NCBI RefSeq assembly: GCF_001677475.2
Contig: NZ_CP015229.1
DNA: 64,000 nucleotides
From: Escherichia coli
GTDB taxonomy: Bacteria > Pseudomonadota > Gammaproteobacteria > Enterobacterales > Enterobacteriaceae
Reading direction: 5' to 3' (one strand)
Shown: in pieces, positions 3,218-62,236 of the stretch
Position numbering within the stretch: the first letter of the stretch is position 1
How the letters are laid out: each line of letters begins with the position of its first letter
Position numbers and translations under genes: made by a program
The notes under the pieces: model-generated
Databases searched by the model: none
What the model was told of the DNA's origin: nothing
What the model saw: the letters and a program-made list of their open reading frames with translations, nothing else

Positions 3218-3288
3218 AATTACCTGCCTGTCGTTAAAAAATTCACGTCCTATTTAGAGATAAGAGCGACTTCGCTGTTTACTTCTCA

Positions 3289-4203: not shown

Positions 4204-4308
4204 TTTTTTCCCTTAGATTCATCTGACTTACGCATAGTGATAAACCTCTTTTTCGCAAAATCGTCATGGATTTACTAAAACATGCATATTCGATCACAAA
4301 ACATCATA

Positions 4309-4320
4309 GTTAACGTTAAC
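4309..4320. promoter_or_regulatory. Perfect 12-bp palindrome GTTAACGTTAAC in cscK-cscA divergent promoter region; candidate CscR operator (copy 1)
   Basis: Read directly in sequence; self-complementary; second identical copy 64 bp downstream. Confidence 0.5.
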
Positions 4321-4372
4321 ATTTGTGATATTCATCGCATTTATGAAAGTAAGGGACTTTATTTTTATAAAA

Positions 4373-4384
4373 GTTAACGTTAAC
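4373..4384. promoter_or_regulatory. Perfect 12-bp palindrome GTTAACGTTAAC; candidate CscR operator (copy 2)
   Basis: Identical to 4309-4320; lies about 25 bp upstream of cscA start codon. Confidence 0.5.
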
Positions 4385-4409
4385 AATTCACCAAATTTGC
4401 TTAACCAGG

Positions 4410-5852: not shown

Positions 5853-5859
5853 CATAATA

Positions 5860-6861
5860 TCAGGTGGAACAACGGATCAACAGCGGGCAAGGGATCCGCG
5901 TCACTCTTCCCCCTTCACGACCTTCAATAATATGCAATGCAGCTTCCCGCCCGATAATGTCATGTGGAAGCTGAATTGTGGTCAGCGGCGGTAAAAACAG
6001 ATGCCCGACGCCAACCAGATTATCAAAGCCCATTACGGCGACATCCTGCGGGATACGTACCCCCTTCGCCAGGAGAACCTGATAAGCGACAAAGGCTGCG
6101 CGATCGTTACCACATATCAGAACATCAAAATCTGGTTTGCCAGATTGGAAGTGGGCATTGAGTAAACTTGCGAGATCGGTGTAGTGATCATCACCTGTTG
6201 CCATGTGAAATTGTTTCACCTCAGCCAGATCTCGTCCAGCATCACGCCAGGCCTGCTCAAATCCCTGCCGACGATACCCTGTTGCCAACGCACTTTCCGG
6301 TAGCCAGAAGCATAACGGTTGACGATAGCCCGCCGCGAGCAAATGCTGTGTTGATTCATATTGTGCAGTGTAATCATCAGGGATATAACTGGGTAACACT
6401 GGGTCATCCGCCACACAGTTCGCCAATACAATATTTTCACCATACAGAGACTCAGGCAGCGTGATATGTCGCAGCCCCATTGTAGTATAGATAATGCCAT
6501 CCGGACGGTGGGCAAGCAGCTGACGTGCCGCGCGGGCAGCGTCATCTTCAGAAAAAATATTGATTAAAAAACTATTCCAGCCGAACTCGCTGGCGGTTTG
6601 CTCAATGGCAAGCAGAATATCAACAGAGAAAGGAGTGGTAGCAGTGTCCTGCGCCAGCACGGCGAGAGTCGACGGCTTACGTCCTTGAGCGCGCATCTTA
6701 CGGGCGGAAAGATCAGGAACATAATTCAGGGTCTGGATTGCCTGCAATACGCGGTCACGCGTTGCAGGACGCACAGATTCTGCATTATGCATCACCCGGG
6801 AGACTGTCATCATCGACACTCCCGCCAGGCGTGCGACATCCTTTAATGAAGCCATACCCAT
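5860..6861 (-). CDS. cscR: LacI-family transcriptional repressor of csc genes
   Basis: HTH (MASLKDVARLAGVSMMTVSRVMHN) then periplasmic-binding-protein-like sugar domain; 397-aa ORF in track is probably 5'-extended, start placed at internal Met (6861 or 6855). Confidence 0.85.
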   Translation of the reverse strand: MGMASLKDVARLAGVSMMTVSRVMHNAESVRPATRDRVLQAIQTLNYVPDLSARKMRAQGRKPSTLAVLAQDTATTPFSVDILLAIEQTASEFGWNSFLINIFSEDDAARAARQLLAHRPDGIIYTTMGLRHITLPESLYGENIVLANCVADDPVLPSYIPDDYTAQYESTQHLLAAGYRQPLCFWLPESALATGYRRQGFEQAWRDAGRDLAEVKQFHMATGDDHYTDLASLLNAHFQSGKPDFDVLICGNDRAAFVAYQVLLAKGVRIPQDVAVMGFDNLVGVGHLFLPPLTTIQLPHDIIGREAALHIIEGREGGRVTRIPCPLLIRCST

Positions 6862-7097
6862 GCCGTTTGCCGTAAAACGGGCACTGTAGCAGAAACAGAC
6901 GTCACTGGCGAGATCCAACGATATTCTTAACGCCCTATCACCCGACACGGCAATACAATAAAAAATAACAATAATTGCCGGATAATTGTACCCAATTCCG
7001 CCCCTGTTCTCGCCAACGAGTAACCATATAGGCAAGTAAGTAAAACATGCCAACTGACATCGCCAACCTGGATAAGAAAATATAAATATGGATCATT

Positions 7098-7316
7098 GTG
7101 CTGCCGCTGTATCCCGACATCAGCCCGGAAATTATTGCGATTGCTATCGGTTCAGGTGCGATTGGCTGCACGATCGTTACGGACTCGCTTTTCTGGCTGG
7201 TGAAGCAATATTGCGGCGCTACGCTTAATGAAACATTTAAACACTATACGACAGCGACATTTATCGCTTCAGTCGTCGCTCTGGCGGGCACATTCCTGCT
7301 GTCATTTATCATCTAA
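7098..7316 (+). pseudogene. dsdX: 3' remnant of D-serine permease gene dsdX (GntP family); 5' portion and dsdC absent
   Basis: 72-aa ORF ...[42 protein letters not shown] resembles a GntP-family C-terminus; sits directly upstream of dsdA where dsdX is expected. Confidence 0.65.
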
Positions 7317-7333
7317 GCGCAAAGAGACGTACT

Positions 7334-8662
7334 ATGGAAAACGCTAAAATGAACTCGCTCATCGCCCAGTATCCGTTGGTAAAGGATCTGGTTGCTCTTA
7401 AAGAAACCACCTGGTTTAATCCTGGCACGACCTCATTGGCTGAAGGTTTACCTTATGTTGGCCTGACCGAACAGGATGTTCAGGACGCCCATGCGCGCTT
7501 ATCCCGTTTTGCACCCTATCTGGCAAAAGCATTTCCTGAAACTGCTGCTACTGGGGGGATTATTGAATCAGAACTGGTTGCCATTCCGGCTATGCAAAAA
7601 CGGCTGGAAAAGGAATATCAACAACCGATCAGCGGGCAACTGTTACTGAAAAAAGATAGCCATTTGCCCATTTCCGGCTCCATAAAAGCACGCGGCGGGA
7701 TTTATGAAGTCCTGGCACACGCAGAAAAACTGGCTCTGGAAGCGGGGTTGCTGACGCTTGAAGATGACTACAGCAAACTGCTTTCTCCGGAGTTTAAACA
7801 GTTCTTTAGCCAATACAGCATTGCTGTGGGCTCAACCGGAAATCTGGGATTGTCAATCGGCATAATGAGCGCCCGCATTGGCTTTAAGGTGACAGTGCAT
7901 ATGTCTGCTGATGCCCGGGCATGGAAAAAAGCGAAACTGCGCAGCCATGGCGTTATGGTCGTGGAATATGAGCAAGATTATGGTGTTGCCGTCGAGGAAG
8001 GACGTAAAGCAGCGCAGTCTGACCCGAACTGTTTCTTTATTGATGACGAGAATTCCCGCAGGTTGTTCCTTGGGTATTCCGTCGCAGGCCAGCGTCTTAA
8101 AGCGCAATTTGCCGAGCAAGGTCGTATTGTCGATGCTGATAACCCTCTGTTTGTCTATCTGCCGTGTGGTGTAGGCGGTGGTCCTGGTGGTGTCGCATTC
8201 GGGCTTAAACTGGCGTTTGGCGATCATGTTCACTGCTTTTTTGCCGAACCAACGCACTCCCCTTGTATGCTGTTAGGCGTCCATACAGGATTACACGATC
8301 AGATTAATGTTCAGGATATTGGTATCGACAACCTTACCGCAGCGGATGGCCTTGCAGTTGGTCGCGCATCAGGCTTTGTCGGGCGGGCAATGGAGCGTCT
8401 GCTGGATGGCTTCTATACCCTTAGCGATCAAACCATGTATGACATGCTTGGCTGGCTGACGCAGGAAGAAGGTATTCGTCTTGAACCTTCGGCACTGGCG
8501 GGTATGGCCGGGCCTCAGCGCGTGTGCGCATCAGTAAGTTACCAACAGATGCACGGTTTCAGCGCAGAACAACTGCGTAATGCCACTCATCTGGTGTGGG
8601 CGACGGGAGGTGGAATGGTGCCGGAAGAAGAGATGGAGCAATATCTGGCAAAAGGCCGCTAA
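7334..8662 (+). CDS. dsdA: D-serine ammonia-lyase (D-serine dehydratase), PLP-dependent
   Basis: 442-aa ORF; PLP-lysine region SGSIKARGG; recognised as DsdA. Confidence 0.9.
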
Positions 8663-23774: not shown

Positions 23775-24695
23775 ATGTTTCCACAATGCAAATTTTCCCG
23801 CGAGTTTCTGCATCCTCGCTACTGGCTCACATGGTTTGGGCTTGGTGTACTCTGGCTTTGGGTACAGCTTCCTTATCCTGTTCTCTGCTTTCTCGGCACG
23901 CGTATTGGCACAATGGCGCGACCATTCCTGAAACGTCGTGAATCTATCGCCCGTAAAAACCTGGAACTTTGTTTCCCGCAGCATTCTGCTGAAGAGCGCG
24001 AGAAGATGATTGCCGAAAACTTTCGTTCACTCGGCATGGCGCTGGTAGAAACCGGCATGGCATGGTTCTGGCCCGACAGTCGCGTACGTAAATGGTTTGA
24101 TGTTGAAGGGATGGATAACCTTAAACGCGCACAAATGCAAAATCGCGGCGTAATGGTTGTCGGCGTCCATTTTATGTCGCTGGAACTGGGCGGTCGCGTG
24201 ATGGGACTTTGCCAACCAATGATGGCCACCTATCGTCCCCATAATAATCAGCTGATGGAATGGGTGCAGACCCGTGGTCGCATGCGCTCTAACAAAGCGA
24301 TGATCGGCAGAAATAATCTGCGCGGCATTGTCAGTGCACTGAAGAAAGGTGAAGCGGTATGGTTTGCTCCCGATCAGGATTATGGTCGTAAAGGCAGCTC
24401 CTTCGCGCCGTTCTTTGCGGTGGAAAATGTCGCCACAACCAATGGCACCTATGTCCTCTCTCGTCTCTCTGGCGCAGCCATGTTGACCGTAACGATGGTA
24501 AGAAAAGCGGATTATAGCGGATATCGTTTGTACATCACCCCAGAGATGGAAGGCTACCCGGCAGATGAAAATCAAGCCGCTGCCTATATGAACAAGATTA
24601 TCGAGAAAGAGATCATGCGCGCACCGGAGCAGTACCTCTGGATCCACCGTCGCTTTAAAACGCGCCCGGTGGGAGAATCGTCGTTATACATTTAA
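23775..24695 (+). CDS. lpxP: Lipid A biosynthesis palmitoleoyl acyltransferase (cold-induced LpxL paralog)
   Basis: Late acyltransferase family; ORF in track starts upstream (23709), start placed at MFPQCKFSREFLHPRYWL giving about 306 aa. Confidence 0.85.
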   Translation: MFPQCKFSREFLHPRYWLTWFGLGVLWLWVQLPYPVLCFLGTRIGTMARPFLKRRESIARKNLELCFPQHSAEEREKMIAENFRSLGMALVETGMAWFWPDSRVRKWFDVEGMDNLKRAQMQNRGVMVVGVHFMSLELGGRVMGLCQPMMATYRPHNNQLMEWVQTRGRMRSNKAMIGRNNLRGIVSALKKGEAVWFAPDQDYGRKGSSFAPFFAVENVATTNGTYVLSRLSGAAMLTVTMVRKADYSGYRLYITPEMEGYPADENQAAAYMNKIIEKEIMRAPEQYLWIHRRFKTRPVGESSLYI

Positions 24696-25050
24696 CAAAC
24701 TGCTCTCACTCTTTCCCTCCTCAAATCAGCCATAATAACCTCATGGTTTTTATGGCTTTTTTCTTAAGGTTTTTTCCTTCGCTGAATATCTAATTATTAC
24801 CGTCAGAAATTAAACTGTCGCCGATATGAGACACCTGTAAGTTACTAAAAGTAAATAAGAAAATGCCTCTTGTCTCGTTTCAGTTTTAGGCGTACATTAG
24901 CGCCGTCTCGAGCAGTTTAGCTCAGAATTCTGGGGTGATGCCCACGGTAAAATACAGGACTTTTAAGGTCGTATTGCCCGGTGTCAACTCACTGTATCAG
25001 GTGTGATGAAGTCATTCAGGCGTAACAGTAATTACGCGGAGAGATGTAAA

Positions 25051-25122
25051 GTGAAATATTTCTTTATGGGCATTTCTTTTATGGTCATCGTTTGGGCCGG
25101 TACTTTTGCCCTGATGATCTAA
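25051..25122 (+). CDS. ypdK: Small (23-aa) hydrophobic membrane protein
   Basis: GTG-initiated ORF VKYFFMGISFMVIVWAGTFALMI; matches the known small protein between lpxP and alaC; below the 60-aa ORF-track cut-off. Confidence 0.6.
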   Translation: MKYFFMGISFMVIVWAGTFALMI

Positions 25123-25141
25123 AAGCAAACTGTGCAATGAA

Positions 25142-25167
25142 AAACAGGAGCCATCAGGCTCCTGTTT
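25142..25167. terminator. Bidirectional intrinsic terminator hairpin (CAGGAGCC-ATCA-GGCTCCTG) between ypdK and convergent alaC
   Basis: 8-bp perfect stem flanked by A-run upstream and T-run downstream. Confidence 0.6.
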
Positions 25168-25187
25168 GCATTTCTGACGACGGTTTT

Positions 25188-26426
25188 TTATTCCGCGTTT
25201 TCGTGAATATGTTTGCTGCTGGCTGGAAGTAAACCGTCGGCACGGAACATCGCTTTAATCCCACGAATCGCCTGACGAATACGGTCGCGGTTTTCTATCA
25301 GAGCAAAGCGCACATGCGTGTCGCCGTAGTCGCCAAAGCCAATCCCTGGAGAGACACAGACCTTCGCTTCGTTAAGCAATTTCTTGGCAAATTCCAGCGA
25401 GCCCATGGCAGCATACGGTTCCGGGATTTTCGCCCAGACATACATCGAAGCCTTCGGCATTTCGACCATCCAGCCCGCTTCATGCAGCCCTTTAACCAGT
25501 ACATCACGGCGGCGTTTGTACTGTTCGGCAATGTCGCGCACGCACTGTTGATCGCCCTCCAGCGCCGCAATTGCCGCCACCTGCAACGGCGTAAAGGTAC
25601 CGTAATCGTGATAGCTTTTGATGCGCGCCAGGGCGCTGACCAGCGTTTTGTTGCCAACCATAAAGCCAATACGCCAGCCTGCCATGTTGTAGCTTTTCGA
25701 CAGCGTAAAGAACTCGACTGCCACATCGCGTGCACCTGGTACCTGCATGATTGACGGCGCTTTCCAGCCATCGTAGACGATATCGGCATAGGCCAGGTCG
25801 TGGACCACCAGCACATCGTAGCGTTTCGCCAGCGCCACAACCTTCTCAAAGAATTCCAGTTCCACGCATTGCGCGGTTGGGTTTGACGGGAAGCCGAGGA
25901 TCATCATCTTCGGTTTCGGATAACTTTCACGAATGGCGCGCTCCAGTTCATTGAAGAAATCGACACCTTCCACCAGCGGCACTGAGCGTACCTGCGCCCC
26001 GGCAATCACCGCGCCGTAAATATGAATGGGGTAGCTTGGATTCGGCACCAGCACTGTGTCACCATGATCCAGCGTCGCCAGCATCAGGTGCGCCAGCCCC
26101 TCTTTCGAACCAATAGTGACGATGGCTTCTGATTCCGGGTCGATCTCAACGTCGTAGCGATCCTGATACCAGCGGGAAATGGCGCGACGTAACCGCGGAA
26201 TGCCGCGTGAAGTGGAGTAACCATGCGTGTCCGGGCGCTGGGCCACCGTACATAATTTTTCGACGATATGCGGTGGAGTCGCACCGTCCGGGTTACCCAT
26301 ACTGAAATCGATAATATCTTCGCCGCGCCGACGCGCAGCCATTTTCAGTTCAGCGGTAATGTTAAAAACGTAGGGCGGGAGACGATCAATACGCGTAAAG
26401 CGACGTTCAGGGCGAGTGTCAGCCAT
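25188..26426 (-). CDS. alaC: Glutamate-pyruvate aminotransferase (class I PLP aminotransferase)
   Basis: 412-aa ORF with class-I aminotransferase motifs ([10 protein letters not shown]). Confidence 0.9.
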
Positions 26427-26802
26427 AATTTCCTCAGATAAACGTTAGCGCCCGGACCGTCCGAGCGACGCTGCCACGATGGTGGCTGTTTTGAAAATAG
26501 CCTGATTAATTTCTGTCTGTCCAGCGTTTTAGAACATTTTTGTTAATGGCTTTAAATGAGGAACACTGCTTTAAAAACAGGAAATTTATCTACGCTAACA
26601 AGAAAATTACCACTCATTTTATTAACATTATAACTTCAATAAATTTACCAACCAGAAGTGCATTATCAAGAGATGCATTGCAAATACACCATTTATCTTT
26701 CAATCCCCTTTTAAAATTGTGGTTTTTCCTCAAAAACGGCCTGCTGGTCATCAGCCTTCAGGTTACCTATCATAGAGGTTTAATCCTTATTCAGAGTCAC
26801 CC

Positions 26803-28500
26803 GTGCACGAAATATTCAACATGCTGCTGGCGGTCTTCGATCGGGCAGCGTTAATGCTTATCTGCCTGTTCTTTCTCATCCGTATCCGCCTGTTTCGCGA
26901 GCTGTTGCACAAGTCGGCGCACTCCCCAAAAGAGTTGCTCGCCGTTACCGCCATTTTCTCGCTGTTCGCCCTGTTCAGCACCTGGTCCGGCGTTCCTGTA
27001 GAAGGCTCGCTGGTGAACGTACGTATTATCGCGGTGATGTCCGGCGGGATTCTGTTTGGCCCGTGGGTAGGCATCATTACCGGCGTGATTGCGGGTATTC
27101 ACCGGTATTTAATTGATATCGGCGGCGTGACGGCGATCCCCTGCTTTATCACCAGCATTCTGGCGGGTTGTATATCGGGCTGGATCAACCTGAAAATCCC
27201 CAAAGCACAGCGCTGGCGCGTCGGTATTCTCGGCGGCATGTTGTGTGAAACGTTGACCATGATTCTGGTGATTGTCTGGGCACCAACCACCGCGTTGGGG
27301 ATCGATATCGTCTCTAAAATCGGCATTCCGATGATCCTCGGCAGCGTCTGTATCGGCTTTATTGTGTTGCTGGTACAAAGCGTTGAGGGCGAAAAAGAGG
27401 CCAGCGCCGCGCGGCAGGCCAAGCTGGCGCTGGATATCGCCAACAAAACGCTGCCGCTGTTTCGCCATGTCAATAGCGAGTCATTACGCAAGGTCTGCGA
27501 AATTATCCGCGATGACATTCACGCCGATGCGGTGGCGATTACTAATACCGATCATGTGCTGGCCTACGTTGGCGTGGGTGAACATAACTATCAGAATGGC
27601 GATGACTTCATTAGCCCAACTACCCGTCAGGCGATGAATTACGGAAAAATCATCATTAAAAACAATGATGAAGCCCACCGCACACCAGAGATTCATTCCA
27701 TGCTGGTGATCCCATTGTGGGAGAAAGGCGTTGTGACCGGAACGCTGAAAATTTACTACTGCCACGCGCATCAGATCACTTCGTCATTACAGGAAATGGC
27801 GGTCGGTCTGTCGCAAATCATCTCCACGCAACTGGAAGTTTCACGCGCCGAGCAGCTACGTGAAATGGCAAATAAGGCAGAGCTTCGCGCCCTGCAAAGC
27901 AAAATTAATCCTCATTTTCTGTTTAACGCTCTGAACGCTATTTCATCGTCGATCCGTCTGAATCCGGATACCGCTCGCCAGCTGATCTTTAATCTGTCGC
28001 GTTATCTGCGCTATAACATTGAATTAAAAGACGATGAGCAAATCGATATCAAAAAAGAGCTGTATCAAATTAAAGACTATATTGCCATTGAGCAGGCCCG
28101 CTTTGGCGACAAGCTGACGGTTATCTATGATATTGATGAAGAGGTGAATTGCTGCATTCCCAGCCTGCTGATCCAGCCGTTGGTGGAGAACGCCATTGTC
28201 CACGGTATTCAGCCTTGCAAAGGTAAAGGCGTTGTCACCATCAGCGTTGCAGAGTGCGGTAATCGGGTACGCATTGCGGTGCGAGATACCGGGCACGGCA
28301 TCGATCCAAAGGTGATTGAGCGGGTCGAAGCGAATGAAATGCCGGGCAATAAAATTGGCTTGCTGAATGTCCATCATCGCGTGAAGTTATTGTATGGCGA
28401 GGGGCTGCATATCCGCCGCCTGGAGCCAGGGACGGAAATTGCGTTTTACATTCCTAACCAACGCACCCCAGTCGCCTCACAGGCTACGTTATTGCTTTGA
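26803..28500 (+). CDS. ypdA: LytS-type sensor histidine kinase (5TM-Lyt, GAF, His_kinase, HATPase)
   Basis: 565-aa ORF; N-terminal multi-TM domain, central GAF-like region, H-box [10 protein letters not shown]. Confidence 0.85.
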
Positions 28501-28514
28501 GCCGGAGTGATATT

Positions 28515-29249
28515 GTGAAAGTCATCATTGTTGAAGACGAATTCCTGGCACAACAGGAACTGAGCTGGCTAATTAAAGAGCACAGCCAGATGGAGATTGT
28601 CGGCACCTTTGACGACGGTCTGGACGTGTTGAAGTTTTTGCAGCATAACCGCGTCGACGCCATTTTTCTGGATATCAATATTCCGTCGCTGGATGGCGTG
28701 TTGCTGGCGCAAAACATCAGCCAGTTCGCCCATAAACCATTTATTGTGTTCATCACTGCGTGGAAAGAACATGCGGTAGAAGCGTTTGAACTGGAGGCGT
28801 TTGACTACATTCTCAAACCGTATCAGGAGTCACGCATTACCGCGATGCTGCAAAAACTGGAAGCGGCCTGGCAACAACAGCAGACCAGCAGTACGCCTGC
28901 CGCGACGGTAACGCGTGAGAATGACACCATTAATCTGGTGAAAGATGAGCGAATAATCGTCACGCCAATTAACGATATCTATTACGCCGAAGCGCACGAG
29001 AAAATGACCTTTGTTTATACGCGGCGTGAATCCTACGTAATGCCGATGAACATTACCGAATTTTGCAGCAAACTGCCGCCGTCGCATTTTTTCCGCTGCC
29101 ATCGCTCATTTTGTGTCAATCTGAACAAAATCCGCGAGATCGAACCATGGTTTAATAACACCTACATTCTGCGACTGAAAGATCTGGATTTTGAAGTGCC
29201 GGTCAGCCGCAGCAAAGTGAAAGAATTTCGCCAGTTAATGCATCTTTAA
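28515..29249 (+). CDS. ypdB: LytTR-family response regulator
   Basis: Receiver domain plus C-terminal LytTR DNA-binding domain; GTG start at 28515 chosen (track ORF starts 28497, overlapping ypdA stop). Confidence 0.8.
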   Translation: MKVIIVEDEFLAQQELSWLIKEHSQMEIVGTFDDGLDVLKFLQHNRVDAIFLDINIPSLDGVLLAQNISQFAHKPFIVFITAWKEHAVEAFELEAFDYILKPYQESRITAMLQKLEAAWQQQQTSSTPAATVTRENDTINLVKDERIIVTPINDIYYAEAHEKMTFVYTRRESYVMPMNITEFCSKLPPSHFFRCHRSFCVNLNKIREIEPWFNNTYILRLKDLDFEVPVSRSKVKEFRQLMHL

Positions 29250-29261
29250 TCGGGAACTTTC

Positions 29262-30119
29262 ATGAAAGCACCAGGCTTGCCCGCCGATCAACAATTTTTC
29301 GCCGATCTGTTCAGCGGCCTGGTGCTTAACCCGCAACTACTGGGGCGCGTCTGGTTTGCCAGCCAGCCTGCCTCGTTGCCGGTGGGCAGTTTATGTATTG
29401 ATTATCCCCGTCTGGATATCGTGCTGCGCGGCGAATACGGCAATCTGCTGGAAGCAAAGCAGCAACGTTTGGTGGAAGGAGAAATGCTGTTTATTCCGGC
29501 GCGCGCGGCTAATTTACCGGTCAACAACAAACCGGTGATGCTCTTAAGCCTGGTGTTCGCACCGACCTGGCTTGGGTTATCGTTTTACGATAGCCGCACC
29601 ACGTCGTTGTTGCACCCTGCTCGCCAGATCCAGCTTCCCAGCATGCAACGCGGTGAAGGTGAAGCGATGCTTACCGCCCTCACCCATCTTAGCCGTTCGC
29701 CGCTGGAGCAAAATATCATTCAGCCGCTGGTGTTAAGTTTGCTGCATCTTTGCCGTAACGTGGTGAATATGCCGCCGGGCAATTCGCAGCCGCGCGGCGA
29801 TTTTCTCTATCACAGCATTTGTAACTGGGTTCAGGATAATTATGCCCAGCCGCTCACCCGCGAGAGCGTGGCGCAGTTTTTTAATATCACGCCCAATCAT
29901 CTGTCAAAACTGTTTGCTCAGCATGGAACGATGCGTTTTATCGAATATGTGCGTTGGGTGCGAATGGCGAAGGCGAGGATGATTTTGCAGAAATATCATC
30001 TGTCGATTCATGAAGTGGCGCAGCGTTGCGGCTTTCCGGATAGCGACTATTTTTGTCGCGTCTTCCGGCGTCAGTTTGGCCTGACGCCGGGAGAGTACAG
30101 CGCCCGTTTTCAGGGCTAA
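29262..30119 (+). CDS. ypdC: AraC/XylS-family transcriptional regulator
   Basis: 285-aa ORF with C-terminal AraC-type double HTH (HLSKLF...FPDSDYFCRVFRRQFGLTPGEY). Confidence 0.8.
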   Translation: MKAPGLPADQQFFADLFSGLVLNPQLLGRVWFASQPASLPVGSLCIDYPRLDIVLRGEYGNLLEAKQQRLVEGEMLFIPARAANLPVNNKPVMLLSLVFAPTWLGLSFYDSRTTSLLHPARQIQLPSMQRGEGEAMLTALTHLSRSPLEQNIIQPLVLSLLHLCRNVVNMPPGNSQPRGDFLYHSICNWVQDNYAQPLTRESVAQFFNITPNHLSKLFAQHGTMRFIEYVRWVRMAKARMILQKYHLSIHEVAQRCGFPDSDYFCRVFRRQFGLTPGEYSARFQG

Positions 30120-30121
30120 CA

Positions 30122-32616
30122 TTAGAAGGTTAATTCCGTTTCCAGCAGAGTCAGGATGCTTTGTGCGTCTTGCGCGGCGAACAGCGACTGGCGGAAGTTT
30201 TTATTCACCAGTTTGCGCGCCAGCTGCGAGAAGACCTTCACATGGTTCATCCCTTCGCTAGCGTCCAGCGTCAGCATGATCACCAGTTCGACTTCGCCCA
30301 TTTCTGACTGCCAGTCAACCGGTTTCGCCAGCCGGGCAATGCTGATACTGGAATGACGGATCCACTGAGATTTGGTGTGCGGGATCGCCACGCCAAAACC
30401 AACGCCAGTAGTAACAATCTCTTCCCGTTGCCAGACATCCTCTTCCAGCTCGAACGGATGTTCAGTGCGCCCGTTAACGCCGAGGTTACCGCACAGGAAC
30501 TGGATCGCCTGCTCTTTATTGCTAAAGGCCTGATCAACGAAGATATTCTCCAGCGCCAACAATGGGTGAACGTCTTCTTCCGGCGTAAAGGCGGTGAGTA
30601 ACGCTTCAATTTCCTGCGCGCTGCGACATTCACACGCCTGACGTGCCAGTTCCCGACACGCCTCGCTATCCAGTTGACGAAGCTGGCTTTTCACCGCCGG
30701 AATGCGCGGGCTACTCATACTCAGCTCATCCAGGCCCAGCCCAAGCAGTAGCGGCAGATAACGGCTTTCACCGCCCAGTTCACCGCAAATGCCTACCCAT
30801 TTGCCCCGCTGATGCGCAGTGGTAACTATTTGCTGCAACATGCGCAGGAACGATGGCGTAATCGGGTTATATAGCGGCGATACGCGCGGGTTATTACGAT
30901 CGACCGCATACAGATACTGGGTCATATCGTTGGAGCCGATACTGAAGAAATCGACCTCATCGCAGAAGTGATCGATGATGTAGCACACCGACGGCACTTC
31001 CACCATGATACCCAGCGTAATCGTCTCTGCATGACGCAGGCCATCGCGCTTAAGCTCAACGATCGCTTTTTGGATCTCGCCCTTCACCCATAAGATCTGA
31101 TCGAGGCTGTGGACCATCGGGATCATCAACTGGGCGTTGCCGAAACTGGCGGCGCGCAAAATGGCCCGCAGTTGAGTGCGGAACAGGCCAGCAAATTCCG
31201 GGTAAATACGTACCGCGCGATAGCCGAGGAACGGGTTCTCTTCCTGGGGAATATTCAGATAAGGAATGCTTTTATCGCCGCCGATGTCCATTGTGCGGAA
31301 GATAATCGGCTTGTCGCCCGCTGCCAGTAGCACCTGCTGGTAGGCTTCAAATTGCTCCTGCTCGTCCGGCGCGCTGTCGCGATCCATATAGAGCATTTCG
31401 GTACGGAACAGCCCGACGCCTTCCGCGCCGTTGGCAAACGCGCCAGGCGCTTCCAGAGCGGTGCCAATATTCGCCGCGATATCAATACGCTTGTTATCAC
31501 GGGAATAAGCCAGCTGCGCGGCAGCCTGCGCCTGTTGTTTTTGGCGTTTATCTGCCAGCGTCTGCGCGACCTGATAATAACCGCTCACCGCGTCATTCGG
31601 GTTAATCGCCAGCACGCCGCACTGGGCGTCAAGCACTGCAGGTTGCCCGGCATAGCGCGCGATCGCATCCAGCGGCAGGCCGCTCAAAACCGGGATCGCC
31701 GAGGCACGGGCCAGAATCAGGGTATGCGAGGTGCGCCCGGTTTTCTCCAGAATCATACCTGCAAGATTTTTTAAATCGAGGCTCAAAAACTGGCTTGGGG
31801 TTAAATCCTCGGCCACCAGAATAGTCGGTTTTTCCAGCACCAGATTGTTGCGCGGCTTCAGTTCCGGCCAGGTGATATGCAGCAACTGTTCGCTAACATC
31901 GCGAATGTCGCTAACACGTTCGCGCAGATAATCGCTGGCAGAAGCAGAAAGCTTGGCGCAAACCTGCTCCATATTGCTGATGATCGCCGCCCCAGTCCCT
32001 GATGCTGTTCCGCCATAAGGCGACGGATATTGCCCGCGAACTCATCATCCTGAATCAGCGACAAATGGGCGCTGAGGATGGTTTTGCTTTCGCCGTCACG
32101 CTCGCGCAACTGCTGGTTCAGTTGCTCGGCAAGCGTTGCCAGGCTGTGCTCCAGCCAGGTGGAATCTTGCGCACTGGCCGGGATCGCCCGATAACTGTCG
32201 AGGCTGTCGCTCTGTAACAGGGTCAGTGTACCCACGCCGACGCCGCTTGCCAGCACATTGCCGTACAGTAAATCCGGGTTAAGGCGGCTTAATGAACGCG
32301 GCAGCGGATGCGCCGTCAGTTCTGCCTGCGTCGGCTGAACGCTGTCGCTGTCGATAAAGCGCACCTGGATGTACTCTTCCAGCACGCGCCGCGCCTGCTC
32401 TTCATCGCTGCCGCTAATGTTCAGGCTGCAACTGTCATTAAATAAGGTGCCGGTGCCAATCAGCGCCAGTGAACTTTTGGCATCGGCCTTTGCGTTCTGG
32501 CGATGGTTAATAAAAGTGATTTCGCTTTGCCACTGGCTGCACTGCTCTTTAAGTTCCCACGCCGGACGAGCATGTAGACCGTTAGGCAAAGGACAGAGAA
32601 ATTGAATCGTTAACAT
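30122..32616 (-). pseudogene. fryA: PTS multiphosphoryl transfer protein FryA (HPr-EI-EIIA fusion), apparently disrupted by a 1-bp frameshift
   Basis: Two overlapping minus-strand ORFs in different frames (32616-31858, HPr plus EI N-terminus; 31972-30122, EI His domain GRTSHTLILARAS plus EIIA). Frames rejoin if one G is added to the GGGG run at plus-strand C-tract 31990-31993. Confidence 0.6.
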
Positions 32617-32640
32617 AACCGCTCCGGGTTAATCAGGAGA

Positions 32641-33678
32641 TCATCTGAAATCCGTCAGTTGAACAACCGTCTCACGCGTAAGACGTTGAATAAGGGCAGA
32701 TAAAAGCTGCTGCATCTGCAAGATGTCGCGGCAGTCGGCAATCGATGCGGCGCAATGTCCATGGCGGGTTGCTGGCCCCATCACCACTGTGGGTACGCCA
32801 GTACCGGTTAAGTGAACCGCTCCACCGTCCGTGCCGCCGTTACTGAACATATCCGCCTGTAACGGCACGCCAATTTCTGCCGCCACGGTTTCGATCCAGG
32901 CGGTGAGTTTTGGCGGCGCAATCAGTGACTTGTCGCTTAACACCAGCATCGGGCCGTTACCAATCTGGCGATGGTTAGCCGTGCCATAATCAAAGTTTTT
33001 CGCCCAGCAGGCGGTATCAAGCACAATGGCGACGTCCGGCGACACCGCGCGGGTGGCAGTTTGCCCGCCGCGTAATCCCACCTCTTCGCTCGAACTTGCC
33101 ACCAGCCACACTTCCGCAGGCAGTTCGGCGTCGTGCAGCTCACGTAGTAACGTCACCAGCAGATAGCAACCGAGGCGGTCATCAAAAGCTTTCCCCATCA
33201 CTCGCTGGTGGGGGAGAACCTGAAAAGTAGTATCAAACGTGACGCGATCGCCTGGGCGAATTCCCGCCTGCATCACTTCGTCATACGAGCGCGCACCAAT
33301 GTCCACGCGCATGGCGCTGACATCATTCCCCTGCCGGTCGCCGTCAAGCAGGCCGGGAATTTTGCACTCTTTACGGGTGGTGATGCGCACCGGCTGCAAC
33401 TGGCGGGCAGCCATGCGCACGTTGCCAACCGGCAGCACGTCAATAGCGCCTTCGCGGGAGATGCTGCGCACCATAAATCCCACTTCGTCCATATGCGCAC
33501 AGATCATCACTTTCGGACCTGTCGATTCATTGAGGCGGATCAGCACCGATCCCAGACCATCAAATCGCACTTCTTTTTGCAGGCGATCCGCTTCTTCCAG
33601 CAGGATCTGCCGCACTTCCTGTTCCGAGGAGGCGATCGCATCGGCCTCGCTCAACGCTTTTAATAGCGATAAATCCAT
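32641..33678 (-). CDS. ypdE: M42-family aminopeptidase
   Basis: 345-aa ORF with M42 metal-binding architecture; 1-bp overlap with ypdF. Confidence 0.85.
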
Positions 33679-34763
33679 TATGCCTCTCCCGTGAGCAACA
33701 CTGTTTTCGGCATGGCGTAGAGCACTTCTGCGCCTTGCGGGGTAACCAGCACAACATCTTCGATGCGCACGCCCCCTTGCCCTGGCAAATAAATCCCCGG
33801 CTCTACGGTCAGTAACATGCCAGGCTGTAGCGTCGTGGTGTCCCTCGGTGAAAAACGCGGATCTTCATGGACTTCAATGCCGATAGCATGACCGGTGTTG
33901 TGGCCAAAATAGTCGCCATAACCGGCTTCTGTAATGACCCGGCGCGCGGCATCGTCAACCTGCTGGCAGCGCACGCCGGGGCGAATCGCGGAGATTGCCG
34001 CGAGCTGTGCCTGCAGGACAATCTGATAGACGTTAAACAGCGGGTGAGATTCGGCGCTCACCCCTTCGCCATTCACCAGCAAGGTGCGCGTCATATCAGA
34101 GCAGTAGCCCTGATATAGCGCACCGAAATCGAGAGTGACAAACTCGCCCGCTGCAACAATCTTGTCGCTGGCTTTGCCGTGCGGCAGCGCCCCACGCCAG
34201 CCACTGGCGACAATGGTGTCAAAAGAGGCTTTTTCTGCGCCCTGCTGGCGCATAAACCACTCCAGTTCAGCGGCTATCTCGCGCTCGCTCATCCCCGCCT
34301 GAATAAAGCGGCGAATATGCTCCGCTCCGCGATCGGCAATCCCACAGGCGAGGCGGATTTTCTCCACCTCCTCTGGCGTTTTGATTTGCCGCAGCACATC
34401 CGGCGTGGCGCTTACCAGTTTCGCATTGAGTTCAGACTGCCAGCGGTGCGCGGTTTCCCAACTCACCTGCTGGCCTTCAAAACCGAGCGTTTGCAACTGC
34501 TCATCGGCAATGATTTGCCTGACGACGGTTGTAAGCGTGTGCGTCGCGTCAAGCAAATGCAGCGGGTAGCCTTGCGTGCGAGCTTCCACATCCGCGTAAT
34601 AGCGCGAATCCACCAGAATGTGCGCACTTTCACGGCTAATCACCACATAACCTGATCCGGTGGAGATCCCCAGATGCGGCTGTTTGTTCTGCCGTGAGGA
34701 GAGAAGCACTGCATCCAGTTGTTGCGCCTTAAGCCAGTCGCGCAGCGAAGCGAGTAATGTCAT
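33678..34763 (-). CDS. ypdF: M24B-family Xaa-Pro aminopeptidase
   Basis: 361-aa ORF with creatinase/prolidase-fold C-terminal domain ([13 protein letters not shown]). Confidence 0.85.
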
Positions 34764-34777
34764 CTGGATTTTCCTTC

Positions 34778-36025
34778 TTACAGGCTATCGATTAACAATT
34801 TACCTTTGCGGAACATCATCAGACGCAGGAACACCACCATCAGCGCAGTTATGACTGCCCCCAGCGCGATCCCCGCCATATAGACGCCCAGGTTAGTGAC
34901 CAGCGGCCATGCCCAGATAGCGGATTCCGGGAACCATTGCACTGCGCCCAGCCAGACAGCGGCGGTTGAGCCGACAATAGCACCGACCATATACGACGGA
35001 ATGGCGGTGATGGGACTTTCCAGCGCAAACGGAATCGCACCTTCACTGATCCCCATAAACGCCAGGAACATCGCGGTTTTACCCTGCGGATAAAGTTGGG
35101 CGTTGAACAGACGTTTGCCGGTTAAACGGCGGTCGATAATGGTCGCCAGACCCAGACCAATCGGCGGAATAACAATAGCGATGGAACGCGCGGTAACCGG
35201 TAATACGTGGTCAGTGGTAAAGCTGAAGGCAACGAAACCAGCTGCTTTGTTGATCGGGCCACCAAGGTCGATTGCTGTCGCCGCGGCGATCCCCATCGCG
35301 TACATCAGCGCGCCCTTCTCACCTGCGGCAGTCAGCACGGTACGGATACCGCCGTTGATCCAGCCACCAAAGGGGGTGATGACGTAGTACATCGCCAACA
35401 TGACAAAAATGGCGGAAAGAATCGGTAGCAAAAATGTGGTTTTGAACGCTAACAGGAATTCCGGTAACTGGATTTTCTGGTTCATCCACTTCACAAGGTA
35501 ACCAGCAACGATAGAAATAATCAGGGCACCAATGAAGGTGGACGGCACCGGCGAAGAGGTCGCCCATTGCATAGTGCTGGGATCGAAGTTCAGCAGTTGC
35601 GTCGGCTGGGTAGACATCAACCCGCCGATAAAACCAGCCGGGAACGCCAGTTTGCCACCGATAGAGTTCGCCACAAATGCAGCAAACATCGGAATGGCAA
35701 AACCAAACAACACGCCGCCGAAGGACTGCGACAACCAGGCAAATTTCAGTAAGGAGAGGTCGAAACCGGAGAATTTCCCGCTATTAAGAGCATCCATGAT
35801 GCCGATATCAGCAGGAATTTTAAGCCAGCTATAAGCAATCAGCTGGCTGAAAGCGAGGATCACACCGCCCATAATTAAGGTCGGCACCATGCGTGAAATC
35901 CCTGACATCACATGCTGCGGGAGTTCACCCCAGAAGCTGCTTTTAGAGGCCTGCGGATTCTTAACTGCCGCTGCCGCACCGGATGCGCCAGGCACAACGG
36001 TTGCACTGCGTTTTTTAATGGCCAT
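34778..36025 (-). CDS. fryC: PTS fructose-like EIIC permease
   Basis: 415-aa polytopic membrane ORF of the PTS EIIC fructose family. Confidence 0.85.
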
Positions 36026-36046
36026 AACAATTATCCCTGTCGAATA

Positions 36047-36373
36047 TTACTGTTGTTCAGAGGCAATCATCTCTTCGATTTCTTTGATGATGCCCGCAGC
36101 GTTTTTAATTGCGTCCTGCAAAGTGATTTCATAAACGTCGCGTGATTCGAAACGTTCGTTATCTTCCGGGGTAACTGCCACTGAGTGGATGATGATGGTC
36201 GCTTCGGCGATATCCTGCACCGTCAGGCGATTCTGGATGCCGTCCGCGCCCTGAGTTTCAATTTTCACTTCATAGCCTGCTTCCACCGCCGCTTCTTCCA
36301 GCGCCTGGGCTGCCATAAAGGTGTGAGCCAGACCCATAGGGCAGGCACATAAAGCAATCAGTTTCTTACTCAT
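36047..36373 (-). CDS. fryB: PTS fructose-like EIIB component
   Basis: Start placed at MSKKLIALCACPMGLAHT (active-site Cys motif); track ORF is 5'-extended. Confidence 0.8.
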   Translation of the reverse strand: MSKKLIALCACPMGLAHTFMAAQALEEAAVEAGYEVKIETQGADGIQNRLTVQDIAEATIIIHSVAVTPEDNERFESRDVYEITLQDAIKNAAGIIKEIEEMIASEQQ

Positions 36374-36549
36374 CGTTAATTCCTCGTTCAGTGATAGTTG
36401 ACGATTGAAATTATGAACGTGCAAAACAAATCGCCGTTACCAGACAAATAATGCATTTACTGGAGAATTAATCCCGCTGTACGGAAGTGTGACGCAGGTC
36501 GGCCTTGTGAGGAGGACACAAAGAAAAATTGAATTAACTGTATGATTTA

Positions 36550-36580
36550 AAAGATTATCGGGAGAATTACCTCCCGATAT
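36550..36580 (-). terminator. Intrinsic terminator hairpin downstream of glk (TCGGGAG-AATTACC-TCCCGA)
   Basis: Perfect inverted repeat followed by T-rich tract on the minus strand. Confidence 0.5.
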
Positions 36581-36592
36581 AACAGGAAGGAT

Positions 36593-37558
36593 TTACAGAA
36601 TGTGCCCTAAGGTCTGGCGTAAATGTGCACCGGAACCGAGAAGACCCGGATTGTCATGGACGATGAGATACACCGGAATATCATGGACATATTCTTTAAA
36701 GCGCCCTTTATCTTCAAATGCGGCACGGAAACCAGAGGCTTTGAAGAACTCAAGGAAGCGCGGCACGATACCGCCCGCAATAAACACGCCGCCAAATGTC
36801 CCTAGATTGAGCGCCAGATTGCCGCCAAAACGGCCCATAATGACGCAAAACAGCGACAACGCGCGGCGGCAATCGGTGCAGCTGTCAGCCAGCGCGCGTT
36901 CGGTAATATCTTTTGGCTTGAGATTTTCTGGCAGGCGGTTGTCGGCTTTAACAATTGCGCGATACAAATTCACCAGCCCAGGGCCAGAAAGCACGCGTTC
37001 CGCCGAAACATGGCCAATTTCCGCACGCAGTATTTCGAGGATAATGGCCTCTTCTTCACTATTCGGCGCAAAATCAACGTGACCGCCTTCGCCTGGCAAG
37101 CTTACCCAACGCTTATCGACATGGACCAGATGTGCAACCCCAAGCCCCGTTCCGGCACCGTAAACCGCAATAGGCTTACCTTCGACCGGTTCTGCGCCAC
37201 CAAACTGAATCAGATGCTCTTTTTTCAGCATCGGGATCGCCATCGATACAGCGGTAAAATCGTTAATAATTTCCAGATGGCTAAAACCGAGATTCTTTTT
37301 CATTTCGGCAATTGAGAACGCCCAGGTATGGTTGGTCATTGCCACCCAGTCACCGGTAATTGGGCAAGCGATGGCAATACAGCCGTCTTTCACCTCGACC
37401 TTATGTTCTTCAAGATAAACGCGAATGACCGCTTCGAGGCTGGGGTAATCAAGCCCTGAATAGGTCTTAGCCTGCGAGATTTCACCACTGGCAATATCAC
37501 ACAGAGCAAGACGTGCGTTGGTGCCGCCCACATCACCGACTAATGCATACTTTGTCAT
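36593..37558 (-). CDS. glk: Glucokinase (ROK-like)
   Basis: 321-aa [22 protein letters not shown]... with glucokinase ATP-binding N-terminus. Confidence 0.9.
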
Positions 37559-37761
37559 TCTTCAACTGCTCCGCTAAAGTCAAAATAATTCTTTCTCACA
37601 CTGTAAATTCCTGGGGGCATAACAACAACGCCGGAAAGGCAGGCTCCCTGTAAATATCGATCTGGGTCACACAATTACTTTATCGTTTCAGCACCAATTG
37701 CAGCGATGCCTTTTTGCAAGCTGGGCAAACTAAGTATCTGACCCCGCATAAGGAATAGAAC

Positions 37762-39018
37762 ATGCTCCATCCGCGAGCCAGAACCATGTTGTTATTATCG
37801 CTCCCCGCCGTGGCAATTGGGATTGCGTCCAGTCTTATTCTGATTGTGGTGATGAAAATCGCCTCGGTATTACAGAATTTGCTCTGGCAACGACTGCCGG
37901 GAACTCTGGGGATAGCCCAGGATTCACCTTTCTGGATCATCGCCATATTAACGCTAACAGGTATTGCGGTGGGGTTGGTTATCCGTTTCAGCCAGGGGCA
38001 TGCTGGACCAGACCCCGCCTGTGAACCGCTGATCGGCGCACCGGTTCCGCCCTCTGCGCTACCAGGACTTATCGTAGCATTAATTCTCGGTCTTGCTGGC
38101 GGCGTCAGCCTGGGGCCGGAACATCCGATCATGACCGTCAATATCGCCCTTGCCGTCGCCATTGGCGCTCGTCTGTTACCGCGCGTCAACCGAATGGAGT
38201 GGACTATTTTAGCCTCTGCCGGAACCATCGGCGCGCTGTTTGGCACACCTGTTGCGGCGGCGTTGATATTTTCGCAAACCTTAAATGGCAGTAATGAAGT
38301 GCCGCTATGGGATCGACTCTTTGCGCCGTTAATGGCAGCGGCGGCTGGTGCGCTGACGACAAGTCTATTTTTCCACCCCCATTTTTCGCTGCCCATTGCG
38401 CATTACGGACAGATGCAGATGGCAGACATTATCAGCGGTGCGATTGTAGCGGCGATTGCCATCGCTGCGGGGATGGTCGCCGTATGGTGTCTGCCACGGT
38501 TGCACGCAATGATGCATCAGATTAAAAACCCTGTGCTTATGCTCGGGGTTGGCGGGTTTATTCTCGGTATTTTGGGGGTTATTGGTGGGCCGGTTTCACT
38601 GTTTAAAGGGCTGGATGAGATGCAGCAAATGGTGATGAATCAGGCTTTCAGCACCAGTGATTACTTTTTACTGGCGGTGATTAAGCTCGCCGCTCTGGTC
38701 ATTGCCGCCGCCAGCGGGTTTCGTGGCGGGCGAATCTTCCCGGCAGTGTTTGTTGGCGTGGCGTTAGGTTTGATGCTACATGAACACGTTCCCGCAGTCC
38801 CGGCGGCAATTACTGTCTCCTGCGCTATTCTCGGTATGGTACTGGTGGTAACGCGCGATGGCTGGTTAAGCCTGTTTATGGCGGCAGTCGTTGTACCTGA
38901 TACCAATCTGCTACCGCTACTTTGTATCGTTATGCTTCCGGCATGGCTATTGCTGGCTGGCAAACCGATGATGATTGTGAATCGCCCGAAGCAGCAACCA
39001 CCCCACGATAATCTTTAG
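37762..39018 (+). CDS. yfeO: ClC-family voltage-gated chloride channel-like membrane protein
   Basis: 418-aa polytopic ORF with ClC-like GxxxGPxxP motifs (GVSLGPEHP). Confidence 0.85.
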
Positions 39019-44617: not shown

Positions 44618-44824
44618 GAGTACACTACTCTCACTGATCGGGGTTTTCAGGCACACAAATAATAAGTTTATTCGCATCGCGAAGCAAACAGGGGCCAGCC
44701 TGTTGCCTATTTTTCATCCAATGATGCTTTCACCAGGCGGCGCTAACCCGGACGTAGACTGTATTACAAAAGCGGCAAAAAGCAGAGACAAAAAACCCCC
44801 GCTTTGCAGCGAGGGTTGGAAATT

Positions 44825-44900
<76 letters not shown>

Positions 44901-60166: not shown

Positions 60167-60424
60167 ATGTTCCAGCAAGAAGTTACCATTACCGCTCCGA
60201 ACGGTCTGCACACCCGCCCTGCTGCCCAGTTTGTAAAAGAAGCTAAGGGCTTCACTTCTGAAATTACTGTGACTTCCAACGGCAAAACCGCCAGCGCGAA
60301 AAGCCTGTTTAAACTGCAGACTCTGGGCCTGACTCAAGGTACCGTTGTGACTATCTCCGCAGAAGGCGAAGACGAGCAGAAAGCGGTTGAACATCTGGTT
60401 AAACTGATGGCGGAACTCGAGTAA
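60167..60424 (+). CDS. ptsH: PTS phosphocarrier protein HPr
   Basis: 85-aa [23 protein letters not shown]..., active-site His15 context. Confidence 0.95.
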
Positions 60425-60468
60425 TTTCCCGGGTTCTTTTAAAAATCAGTCACAAGTAAGGTAGGGTT

Positions 60469-62196: not shown

Positions 62197-62236
62197 TCCA
62201 CGAGATGCGGCCCAATTTACTGCTTAGGAGAAGATC

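Follow-up and report, generated by a model that had tools for sequence, protein, structure and literature searches.

What are two aminopeptidases doing inside the operon of a sugar phosphotransferase system (PTS), and do the regulatory genes beside that operon belong with it? The question is raised by positions 26803 to 36373 of a 64,000 nucleotide stretch of Escherichia coli DNA (contig NZ_CP015229.1; the whole stretch is referred to here as the window). This interval is the known E. coli ypdABC / fryBC-ypdFE-fryA locus, and all of its genes are already known. The Fry PTS, the regulator YpdC and the physiological role of YpdE and YpdF are nevertheless orphans, despite solved structures of both peptidases. 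A sequence-only reading of the window had taken the interval as one regulator-PTS-peptidase cluster. The interpretation that we favour, with somewhat more confidence than doubt, is that there are two adjacent, separate units, that the fry module is controlled by YpdC and CRP and serves a sugar-amino-acid conjugate, and that fryA was recently broken in this lineage. What is added here is that the geometry is put right, that ypdAB is set apart from the module, and that a concrete hypothesis is offered for an operator and for the class of substrate.

In our model the first unit would be ypdA-ypdB, a low-affinity, pyruvate-responsive LytS/LytTR system for which the literature places the target, yhjX, elsewhere. 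The second would be a self-contained catabolic module of six genes, consisting of fryB-fryC-ypdF-ypdE-fryA on the − strand and the convergent gene ypdC. The two units would be functionally separate, and their adjacency in Escherichia and Citrobacter happenstance.

Gene content and arrangement of the locus

Genes were identified from an open reading frame (ORF) map of 25000–38500 together with Pfam and NCBIfam scans. Every gene name in the sequence-only reading held good on the evidence of the ORFs, the Pfam and NCBIfam matches and ~97% identity. The genes are as follows.

26803–28500, + strand: ypdA, LytS-type sensor histidine kinase (565 amino acids, GTG start)
28515–29249, + strand: ypdB, LytTR response regulator (244 amino acids, GTG start)
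29262–30119, + strand: ypdC, AraC-family regulator (285 amino acids; begins 12 nucleotides past ypdB)
30122–32616, − strand: fryA pseudogene, an HPr-Enzyme I-IIA-Fru fusion (831 amino acids if intact)
32641–33678, − strand: ypdE, M42 aminopeptidase (345 amino acids)
33678–34763, − strand: ypdF, M24B Xaa-Pro-type aminopeptidase (361 amino acids)
34778–36025, − strand: fryC, PTS IIC, fructose family (415 amino acids)
36047–36373, − strand: fryB, PTS IIB, fructose family, first gene of the operon (108 amino acids)
36556–36579, − strand: terminator-like hairpin after glk (10-bp stem and T-rich tail, 3′ of the glk stop at 36593)

The sequence-only reading had placed ypdABC upstream of, and divergent from, the fry operon. 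The arrangement is in fact convergent: ypdABC lies on the + strand and the fry operon on the − strand, and the stop codon of ypdC (30117–30119) is 2 bp from that of fryA on the opposite strand (30122–30124). The promoter region of the fry operon is at its far end (36374–36555), beside glk, within a control interval between fryB and glk that spans 36374–36592, and the terminator-like hairpin lies between glk and the operon.

The gaps between the genes of the fry operon are 21, 14, −1 and 24 nucleotides, the stop codon of ypdF overlapping the start of ypdE by 1 nucleotide, and a promoter and terminator scan gave no convincing internal promoter or terminator. The order fryB-fryC-ypdF-ypdE-fryA is kept in more than 16 loci, and fryBC-ypdF-ypdE-fryA is listed as a single transcription unit, as is ypdA-ypdB-ypdC (PMC2731931). 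The gaps and the listed unit agree with the earlier claim that the peptidases sit inside the PTS operon.

The locus matches that of K-12 (b2380–b2387) in its genes, their order and orientation and its flanks, alaC and glk, and differs in that fryA in the window is one base short and is a pseudogene in this lineage. It was found by megablast in 5413 of 5426 complete E. coli genomes. At the nucleotide level it is 97.0–97.5% identical to annotated E. coli ypdA-ypdB-ypdC-ptsP(fryA)-ypdE-ypdF-fryC-fryB ('ptsP' being the PGAP label for fryA), and the best identity of the remainder of the window to the closest E. coli is 98.2–98.5%. The lineage is 1.5–2.5% diverged from each complete RefSeq E. coli in the collection. 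Because the nucleotide differences fall nearly all at third codon positions, with only 0–7 amino acid changes per protein, this is the natural divergence of a rare lineage. Exactly the same YpdF (ANO90162.1) and YpdC (ANO90160.1) proteins occur in ~48 contigs named E. coli.

The PTS and the two aminopeptidases

Fructose-type IIB, IIC and IIA domains were all detected, the last in the C-terminal ORF of fryA. FryB matches Pfam PTS_IIB and TIGR00829 (91.2 against a cut-off of 76.85); FryC matches Pfam PTS_EIIC and, marginally, TIGR01427 (157.8 against 157.55). There is no 1-phosphofructokinase gene in the fry operon by ORFs and annotation. Genes for a glycosidase, a deglycase or a sugar-phosphate enzyme are likewise lacking, and the two aminopeptidases are all that accompanies the PTS.

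Both peptidase genes are intact. YpdE matches Pfam Peptidase_M42 (PF05343) at 287 bits, NF007421 at 679 (cut-off 412) and the structure PDB 1YLO at E 1e-224, and its metal ligands (H62, D64, D166/D167, E198/E199, D221 and H308) are invariant in the orthologue alignment. YpdF carries Creatinase_N (PF01321) and Peptidase_M24 (PF00557), scores 815 with NF007310 (cut-off 393) and corresponds to PDB 5CNX, 'Aminopeptidase YpdF'. Ten sequences, ranging from E. coli to Firmicutes, all keep its ligands D212, D223, H292, E321 and E335. M42 enzymes number three in E. coli according to PMC3511314, which, citing Zheng 2005, gives YpdE as a characterised dodecameric aminopeptidase. A ypdE deletion mutant of strain UTI89 was outcompeted in the mouse bladder with a competitive index of 0.30 (PMC8767336), and this fitness defect suggests that the system is used in the host. 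FryA is unmentioned in PMC2405797, and mentions of ypdF in the literature on thioproline and on Caenorhabditis elegans carry nothing on function.

A PTS requires a hydroxyl group to phosphorylate. Because the aminopeptidases are the only catabolic enzymes of the operon, the simplest reading of the substrate is a sugar with an amide-linked amino acid, and we propose with moderate confidence that it is a sugar or amino sugar carrying one or more such amino acids. The PTS would import and phosphorylate this glyco-amino acid or short glycopeptide, and YpdF (Xaa-Pro/Met-type M24B) and YpdE (broad-specificity M42) would go on to remove the amino acids intracellularly, so that a sugar phosphate is freed for central metabolism.

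Two other E. coli operons, frvABXR and sgcXBCQAER, resemble fry in joining an orphan PTS to an M42 paralogue (FrvX and SgcX, respectively), and the FrvX-type model NF007367 is the second-best match of YpdE. Neither operon is in the window, and neither is known to have an M24 partner; their PTS components and regulators differ from those of fry. The sequence-only reading had called the fry substrate undefined; this is borne out, as none is named in the literature consulted, and PMC5797941 likewise gives the sugar of the sgc PTS as unknown.

Related modules in Firmicutes

YpdE orthologues were aligned, one genome per species of GTDB was scanned, and 80 loci were annotated by tblastn (locus numbers are prefixed L). 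Two Oscillospiraceae (L022 and L023) have the genes PRD/Mga regulator-IIA-IIB-IIC-M24-M42-PatB-family C-S lyase-type I mannose-6-phosphate isomerase, an order that matches E. coli. Identity to the E. coli proteins is 77–79% for IIB, 62–63% for IIC, 44% for M24 and 48–49% for M42. A second version has the order PRD regulator-M42-IIA-IIB-IIC-M24-PatB-family lyase with a PTS of the lactose/cellobiose family. Nine loci of this version are complete, and the contig of a tenth, from Terrisporobacter, ends after IIB. Its hosts are Romboutsia, Clostridium, Peptacetobacter, Solobacterium, Lactococcus reticulitermitis, Erysipelotrichaceae, Terrisporobacter and the actinobacterium Olegusella. The M42 protein of L028 passes the YpdE-specific NCBIfam model (460.7 against 412), and in both peptidases the metal ligands do not vary in any of the aligned sequences.

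These modules (L022–L031, L034 and L035) share with fry a YpdE-type M42 and a YpdF-like M24 enzyme beside PTS IIA-IIB-IIC. They differ in four respects. The regulator is of PRD/Mga type, in contrast with the AraC-type YpdC of E. coli; IIA is free-standing, whereas in E. coli it is fused to Enzyme I and HPr; a PatB-family lyase is a constant component that has no counterpart in the E. coli operon; and most use a lactose/cellobiose-family PTS, unlike the fructose-type fry. In our model the final amino-acid moiety would, in Firmicutes, be removed by the PatB lyase, with pyruvate as a product. No described system combining PTS, M42, M24 and PatB was found in the literature. There is some likeness, to the Firmicute modules only, in the Cys-Gly-3M3SH pathway of Staphylococcus hominis, in which a peptidase reportedly trims the conjugate before a PatB C-S lyase cleaves the remainder. 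Uptake in that pathway is said to be through a peptide transporter and not a PTS, and the peptidase families are said to differ.

The alaC gene beside ypdA was considered as a counterpart of the Firmicute 'aminotransferase' and rejected, since the Firmicute gene is PatB-family (TIGR04350), its product is only 21–27% identical to AlaC, and alaC does not flank the unit in Pluralibacter, Enterobacter or Hafnia.

Among the 80 M42 loci, nearly all at 38% identity or above are PTS-linked, the exception being L039 at 39%. The more distant homologues, mostly archaeal or tandem triplets, have no PTS save L041, L054 and L066. The PTS-peptidase link is thus ancient and probably functional. Retention of the combination in different phyla, with two families of transporter and with regulators that differ, leads us to argue for a shared substrate. 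The Firmicute versions, with their C-S lyase and sometimes nearby amino-sugar or mannose-6-phosphate enzymes, narrow the search for it.

It is possible, and we put this forward tentatively, that fry represents, in enterobacteria, a widespread pathway in which sugar-amino-acid conjugates are handled by a PTS and its partner enzymes, with YpdC as the ligand-sensing activator that works via the tandem repeats conserved ahead of fryB. Candidate substrates would then be an aminoacyl-hexosamine, an O- or S-glycosyl amino acid or a short glycopeptide. If so, aminopeptidases (M42 and M24) would do the work usual for a glycosidase or deglycase, a long-standing orphan PTS of E. coli would gain a function, and the orphan AraC regulator YpdC would gain a target.

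Alternatively, the PTS might carry an ordinary fructose-like sugar, with the aminopeptidases as co-transcribed general peptide recyclers that share no substrate with it. YpdE and YpdF, in the work of Zheng in 2005, are said to hydrolyse ordinary peptides in vitro, M42 enzymes are generally seen in the literature as peptide-recycling TET peptidases, and the operon encodes no sugar-releasing enzyme. However, an operon for a plain sugar would be one without an enzyme for the plain sugar phosphate, and PTS, M42 and M24 have stayed together across phyla, as set out above. We therefore consider this alternative unlikely; the pattern of conservation in these sequences disfavours such hitch-hiking.

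Several further features of these loci were observed. Directly upstream of the modules of L025 and L026 is a set without a transporter, consisting of a GntR regulator, a hexose/tagatose-6-phosphate-type kinase, an AgaS-family isomerase/deaminase and a GatY-like aldolase (L025, 109–3319; L026, 3729–7807), which could form the downstream route of an amino-sugar phosphate. In three loci that are only distantly related (L029, 15377–16033; L034, 10756–11361; L035, 10443–11054), the gene right after that of the PatB-family lyase encodes an RDD-family membrane protein of ~200 amino acids. Many Clostridia have three tandem M42 paralogues without a PTS (L047, L053, L061, L062, L071, L072, L077 and L083), and in L041, L054 and L066 a lactose-family PTS is followed by two tandem M42 genes.

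Conservation of ypdC and ypdAB with the fry operon

In Enterobacterales, fryB-fryC-ypdF-ypdE-fryA with a convergent ypdC just past fryA was found in loci L005–L020 and L086. This six-gene block is present in at least eight genera (Escherichia, Citrobacter, Salmonella, Pseudocitrobacter, Pluralibacter, Enterobacter, Superficieibacter and Hafnia), its carriers being E. coli, E. albertii, six Citrobacter species, Salmonella arizonae, Pseudocitrobacter, two Pluralibacter, Enterobacter, Superficieibacter, Hafnia and E. hormaechei (L086). The sequence-only reading would have been refuted by a recent chance juxtaposition absent from other Enterobacteriaceae. The block is conserved in these genera and the combination in Clostridia, so it is not there by chance.

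There are three chromosomal contexts for the block. In addition to glk/alaC, the six genes lie between rna and rnk in Pluralibacter and Enterobacter, and between sbcC/DUF1294 and a GyrI-like gene in Hafnia. Salmonella arizonae keeps the glk ... alaC context and has retained ypdC, but ypdAB is gone. The ypdAB genes are beside the block solely in Escherichia, Citrobacter and Pseudocitrobacter and are absent next to it in seven loci (L012, L014, L016, L017, L019, L020 and L086), which include Pluralibacter, Superficieibacter, Enterobacter and Hafnia as well as S. arizonae. A ypdC homologue is found within ~1.2 kb of the fryA stop in 15 of the 16 other loci with sufficient flank, and at a distance of ~6.8 kb in L018. 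The GC content of the fry operon is 54–59%, in comparison with 48–50% for ypdAB and glk. Because the block with ypdC lacks ypdAB in seven loci, we conclude from these comparisons that ypdC belongs with the fry unit and that ypdAB is a neighbour, which corrects the assumption that YpdAB is a member of the module.

YpdA has 5TM-5TMR_LYT, GAF, His_kinase and HATPase_c domains above the Pfam cut-offs and does not differ at any amino acid from YpdA of E. coli AW1.7; the gene is annotated as ypdA in L001. YpdB has Pfam Response_reg and LytTR domains and one amino acid difference from annotated E. coli YpdB. The same domain architecture is found in BtsS/BtsR (YehU/YehT), also a LytS/LytTR pyruvate sensor. 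YpdB scores 150.8 bits with the BtsR model NF008677, and because this is below the cut-off of 246 it is a paralogue of BtsR and not BtsR itself. Together, BtsS/BtsR and YpdA/YpdB are reported to form a network that senses pyruvate; in the same account YpdAB responds to extracellular pyruvate, has yhjX as its target and is absent from Salmonella (PMC5552118). In the literature the two systems differ in affinity and in target gene. The yhjX gene is outside the window.

The view of the sequence-only reading, that pyruvate-sensing YpdAB and YpdC together control the adjacent PTS-peptidase operon as one integrated cluster, is accordingly retained in part: ypdC does travel with the operon, but YpdAB does not. 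In favour of integration, Escherichia (E. albertii included), Citrobacter and Pseudocitrobacter have the genes side by side, ypdC follows ypdB closely and is listed with ypdAB, and a PatB-type lyase of the Firmicute kind would make pyruvate and so fit a pyruvate link. Weighed against the convergent orientation of the two units, the seven loci without ypdAB, the reported target elsewhere, the absence of YpdAB from Salmonella and conserved operator repeats that resemble an AraC-type site, we regard integration as quite improbable.

A search of plasmids gave no good evidence of mobility. The match in E. hormaechei is to pMB8072_1 (L086), a 517-kb 'plasmid' carrying an rna-rnk segment that looks chromosomal, and the other matches are mostly chromosomes mislabelled as plasmids. 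In Enterobacter, a gene of the flavin reductase family ends 2 nucleotides before the ypdC homologue (L086, 4364–4984). In some Citrobacter genomes there is extra DNA between fryA and ypdC, ~1.1 kb in L008 and L011 (13557–14698) and ~6.8 kb in L018 (13557–20409).

Predicted promoter and operator of fryB

We aligned the 160–200 bp upstream of fryB from 12 sequences in eight genera with differing chromosomal contexts. The alignment has sharply conserved blocks amid non-conserved DNA, and the Shine-Dalgarno sequence and ATG of fryB are likewise conserved. The predicted elements are as follows.

36410–36504, − strand: predicted fryB promoter/operator, from the conserved alignment blocks
36503–36488, − strand: CRP-like GCCGA-N6-TCACA (aligned consensus nnnGA-N6-TCACA)
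36474–36457, − strand: direct repeat R1, GGATTAATTCTCCAGTAA (18 bp)
36454–36437, − strand: direct repeat R2, GCATTATTTGTCTGGTAA (18 bp)
36415–36410, − strand: −10 box CATAAT, a conserved block

The consensus of the direct repeats across genera is GCATnAnTTnTCCAGTAA / GCATCATTTGTCCGGTAA, with the two 20 bp apart. They are followed by 21 non-conserved bases and then CATAAT. In the window strain R1 and R2 are identical at 13 of 18 positions; they were missed by a repeat search and seen through the cross-genus alignment. With 0–1 mismatch the motif occurs in the 64 kb at R1 and R2 alone, and the sole other match has three mismatches. The repeats abut the −35 position, where a recognisable −35 box is missing, and the centre of the CRP-like site is ~92.5 nucleotides upstream of the predicted start.

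Tandem repeats at −35 with a CRP-like site near −92 are the layout of araBAD and rhaBAD. The fryB upstream region resembles promoters of this type in having a CRP-like site and tandem direct repeats that abut −35, and differs in its weak left CRP half and in that its elements are predicted from sequence. YpdC has a C-terminal helix-turn-helix region at residues 204–281 (HTH_18, 74.3 bits; HTH_AraC, 49.1 bits), and its N-terminal ~180 residues match no Pfam family. Because of the resemblance to araBAD and rhaBAD, we predict that YpdC and CRP activate the fryB promoter through the two 18-bp direct repeats. The comparison yields a defined candidate operator of 38 bp (36437–36474) and a six-gene unit as concrete targets.

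A near-palindrome with 5-nucleotide spacing, TGTGTCCTCCTCACA (36506–36520, − strand), lies upstream of the conserved promoter blocks. Within the alignment it is found in Escherichia sequences alone, and its spacing is wrong for CRP.

The fryA frameshift

The sequence-only reading had noted a frameshift in fryA, and we confirm it.

31990–31993, − strand: frameshift site, coding-strand G4 in place of the G5 of the closest intact relative, at codon ~209

In the MAFFT alignment one base is missing, with the gap at window position 31990, and fryA is split into an ORF of 252 amino acids (32616 to 31858) and one of 616 amino acids (31972 to 30122). The N-terminal ORF has PTS-HPr and a PEP-utilisers_N match truncated at 93 of 121 profile positions; the C-terminal ORF has the Pfam domains PEP-utilizers, PEP-utilizers_C and PTS_EIIA_2. 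NCBIfam scores are 472.7 for TIGR01417 and 140.7 for TIGR00848 (cut-off 103.5; the IIA domain, in the C-terminal ORF). All domains of the HPr-Enzyme I-IIA fusion are therefore present in the window, spread over two frames and not in one continuous one.

At the slip the coding strand reads CTGGGGCGGCG in the window and in L002, and CTGGGGGCGGCG in L003, the closest intact relative. A G run is absent here in other E. coli. These sequences indicate that a lineage-specific run of five G residues dropped one. L002 is an independent assembly (GCA_016118665.1) that is 99.99% identical to the window, with one mismatch over 13,086 bp; it has the same G4, and fryA is not called in it. A further 22 contigs have the same gene calls as L002, again with no fryA. 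FryA is intact at 831 amino acids in L001, L003 and L005. The lesion is real and is fixed in a clone. A homopolymer sequencing or assembly error in an intact module is highly improbable, for although a one-base length change in a G run is the classic error type, the run is just four to five bases long, the G4 recurs in the independent assembly, the 22 further contigs likewise lack the call, and the GenBank numbering from ANO90160 (YpdC) to ANO90162 (YpdF) leaves space for only one protein between them.

Through the slip, the HPr domain is cut off from a truncated Enzyme I-IIA. With FryA split, phosphoryl groups probably no longer reach FryB, and the fry system is probably switched off in this lineage. 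The slip is the sole coding frameshift in the 64 kb, of which the other ~50 kb were compared with close E. coli. The ratio of non-synonymous to synonymous change (pN/pS) against L003 is 0.17 for fryA, from the small counts of six non-synonymous and 11 synonymous differences, and 0.00–0.06 for glk, ypdC and the remaining genes of the module. As no other gene of the module is damaged, the lesion is recent. The suggestion that the module is decaying is thus weakly supported, the 'decay' amounting to a single recent hit. Shigella-like genome decay was rejected, as the other ~50 kb holds no further coding frameshift and the contigs with the exact proteins are named E. coli.

In comparison with L003, ypdF and ypdE (32641–34763) are identical or differ by 1 nucleotide, and 6–8% of synonymous sites differ in fryC and fryB. 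This mosaic of sequence identity suggests that E. coli lineages have recombined with one another inside the operon. Intact copies of ptsH, ptsI and crr, the genes of the general PTS, lie at 60167–62746, ~24 kb from the broken fryA, so general Enzyme I and HPr are available in the strain.

Points that weigh against the model

A number of observations count against the model of two separate units and a conjugate-specific fry module. The peptidases reportedly act on ordinary peptides, as mentioned above. The substrate class is read from gene content, which includes no glycosidase or deglycase, and the accessory genes of the Firmicute modules vary by locus, being mannose-6-phosphate isomerase, L-lactate dehydrogenase (L028), the AgaS-type trio or the RDD protein. 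With regard to control by YpdC and CRP, the CRP-like site matches poorly in its left half (2/5), and a consensus promoter and terminator scan of 26300–37700 did not rise above shuffled sequence, its useful output being the glk terminator hairpin. A study by chromatin immunoprecipitation with exonuclease (ChIP-exo) gave no YpdC peaks under the conditions tested (PMC8464067), and YpdC continues to be listed as uncharacterised. The position of E. coli ypdC, 12 nucleotides past ypdB and in one listed unit with ypdAB (PMC2731931), means that expression of ypdC, and hence of fry, could still be coupled to YpdAB in the window lineage. Finally, the ORF of 616 amino acids begins at an in-frame ATG seven codons past the fryA slip, and the Enzyme I-IIA fragment may have residual IIA activity, fed by general HPr.

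Other features of the window

A scan of 24000–39000 with Rfam gave no match at E ≤ 0.1. The first 25 kb of the window is covered to at least 80% in just 2654 of the 5426 genomes, and this part is thus variable in the species. It includes, at ~1970–8650, the csc sucrose-utilisation cluster (cscB, cscK, cscA and cscR), which adjoins dsdA; the dsdX beside it is a fragment only, as in the closest E. coli. In comparison with E. coli O103:H2 strain 129, the window has one tRNA-Ala(GGC) at 44819–44900 where that strain has two tandem copies, a deletion of 115 bp. There is also a 12-bp in-frame insertion in zipA at ~57245 relative to the O103:H2 comparator.

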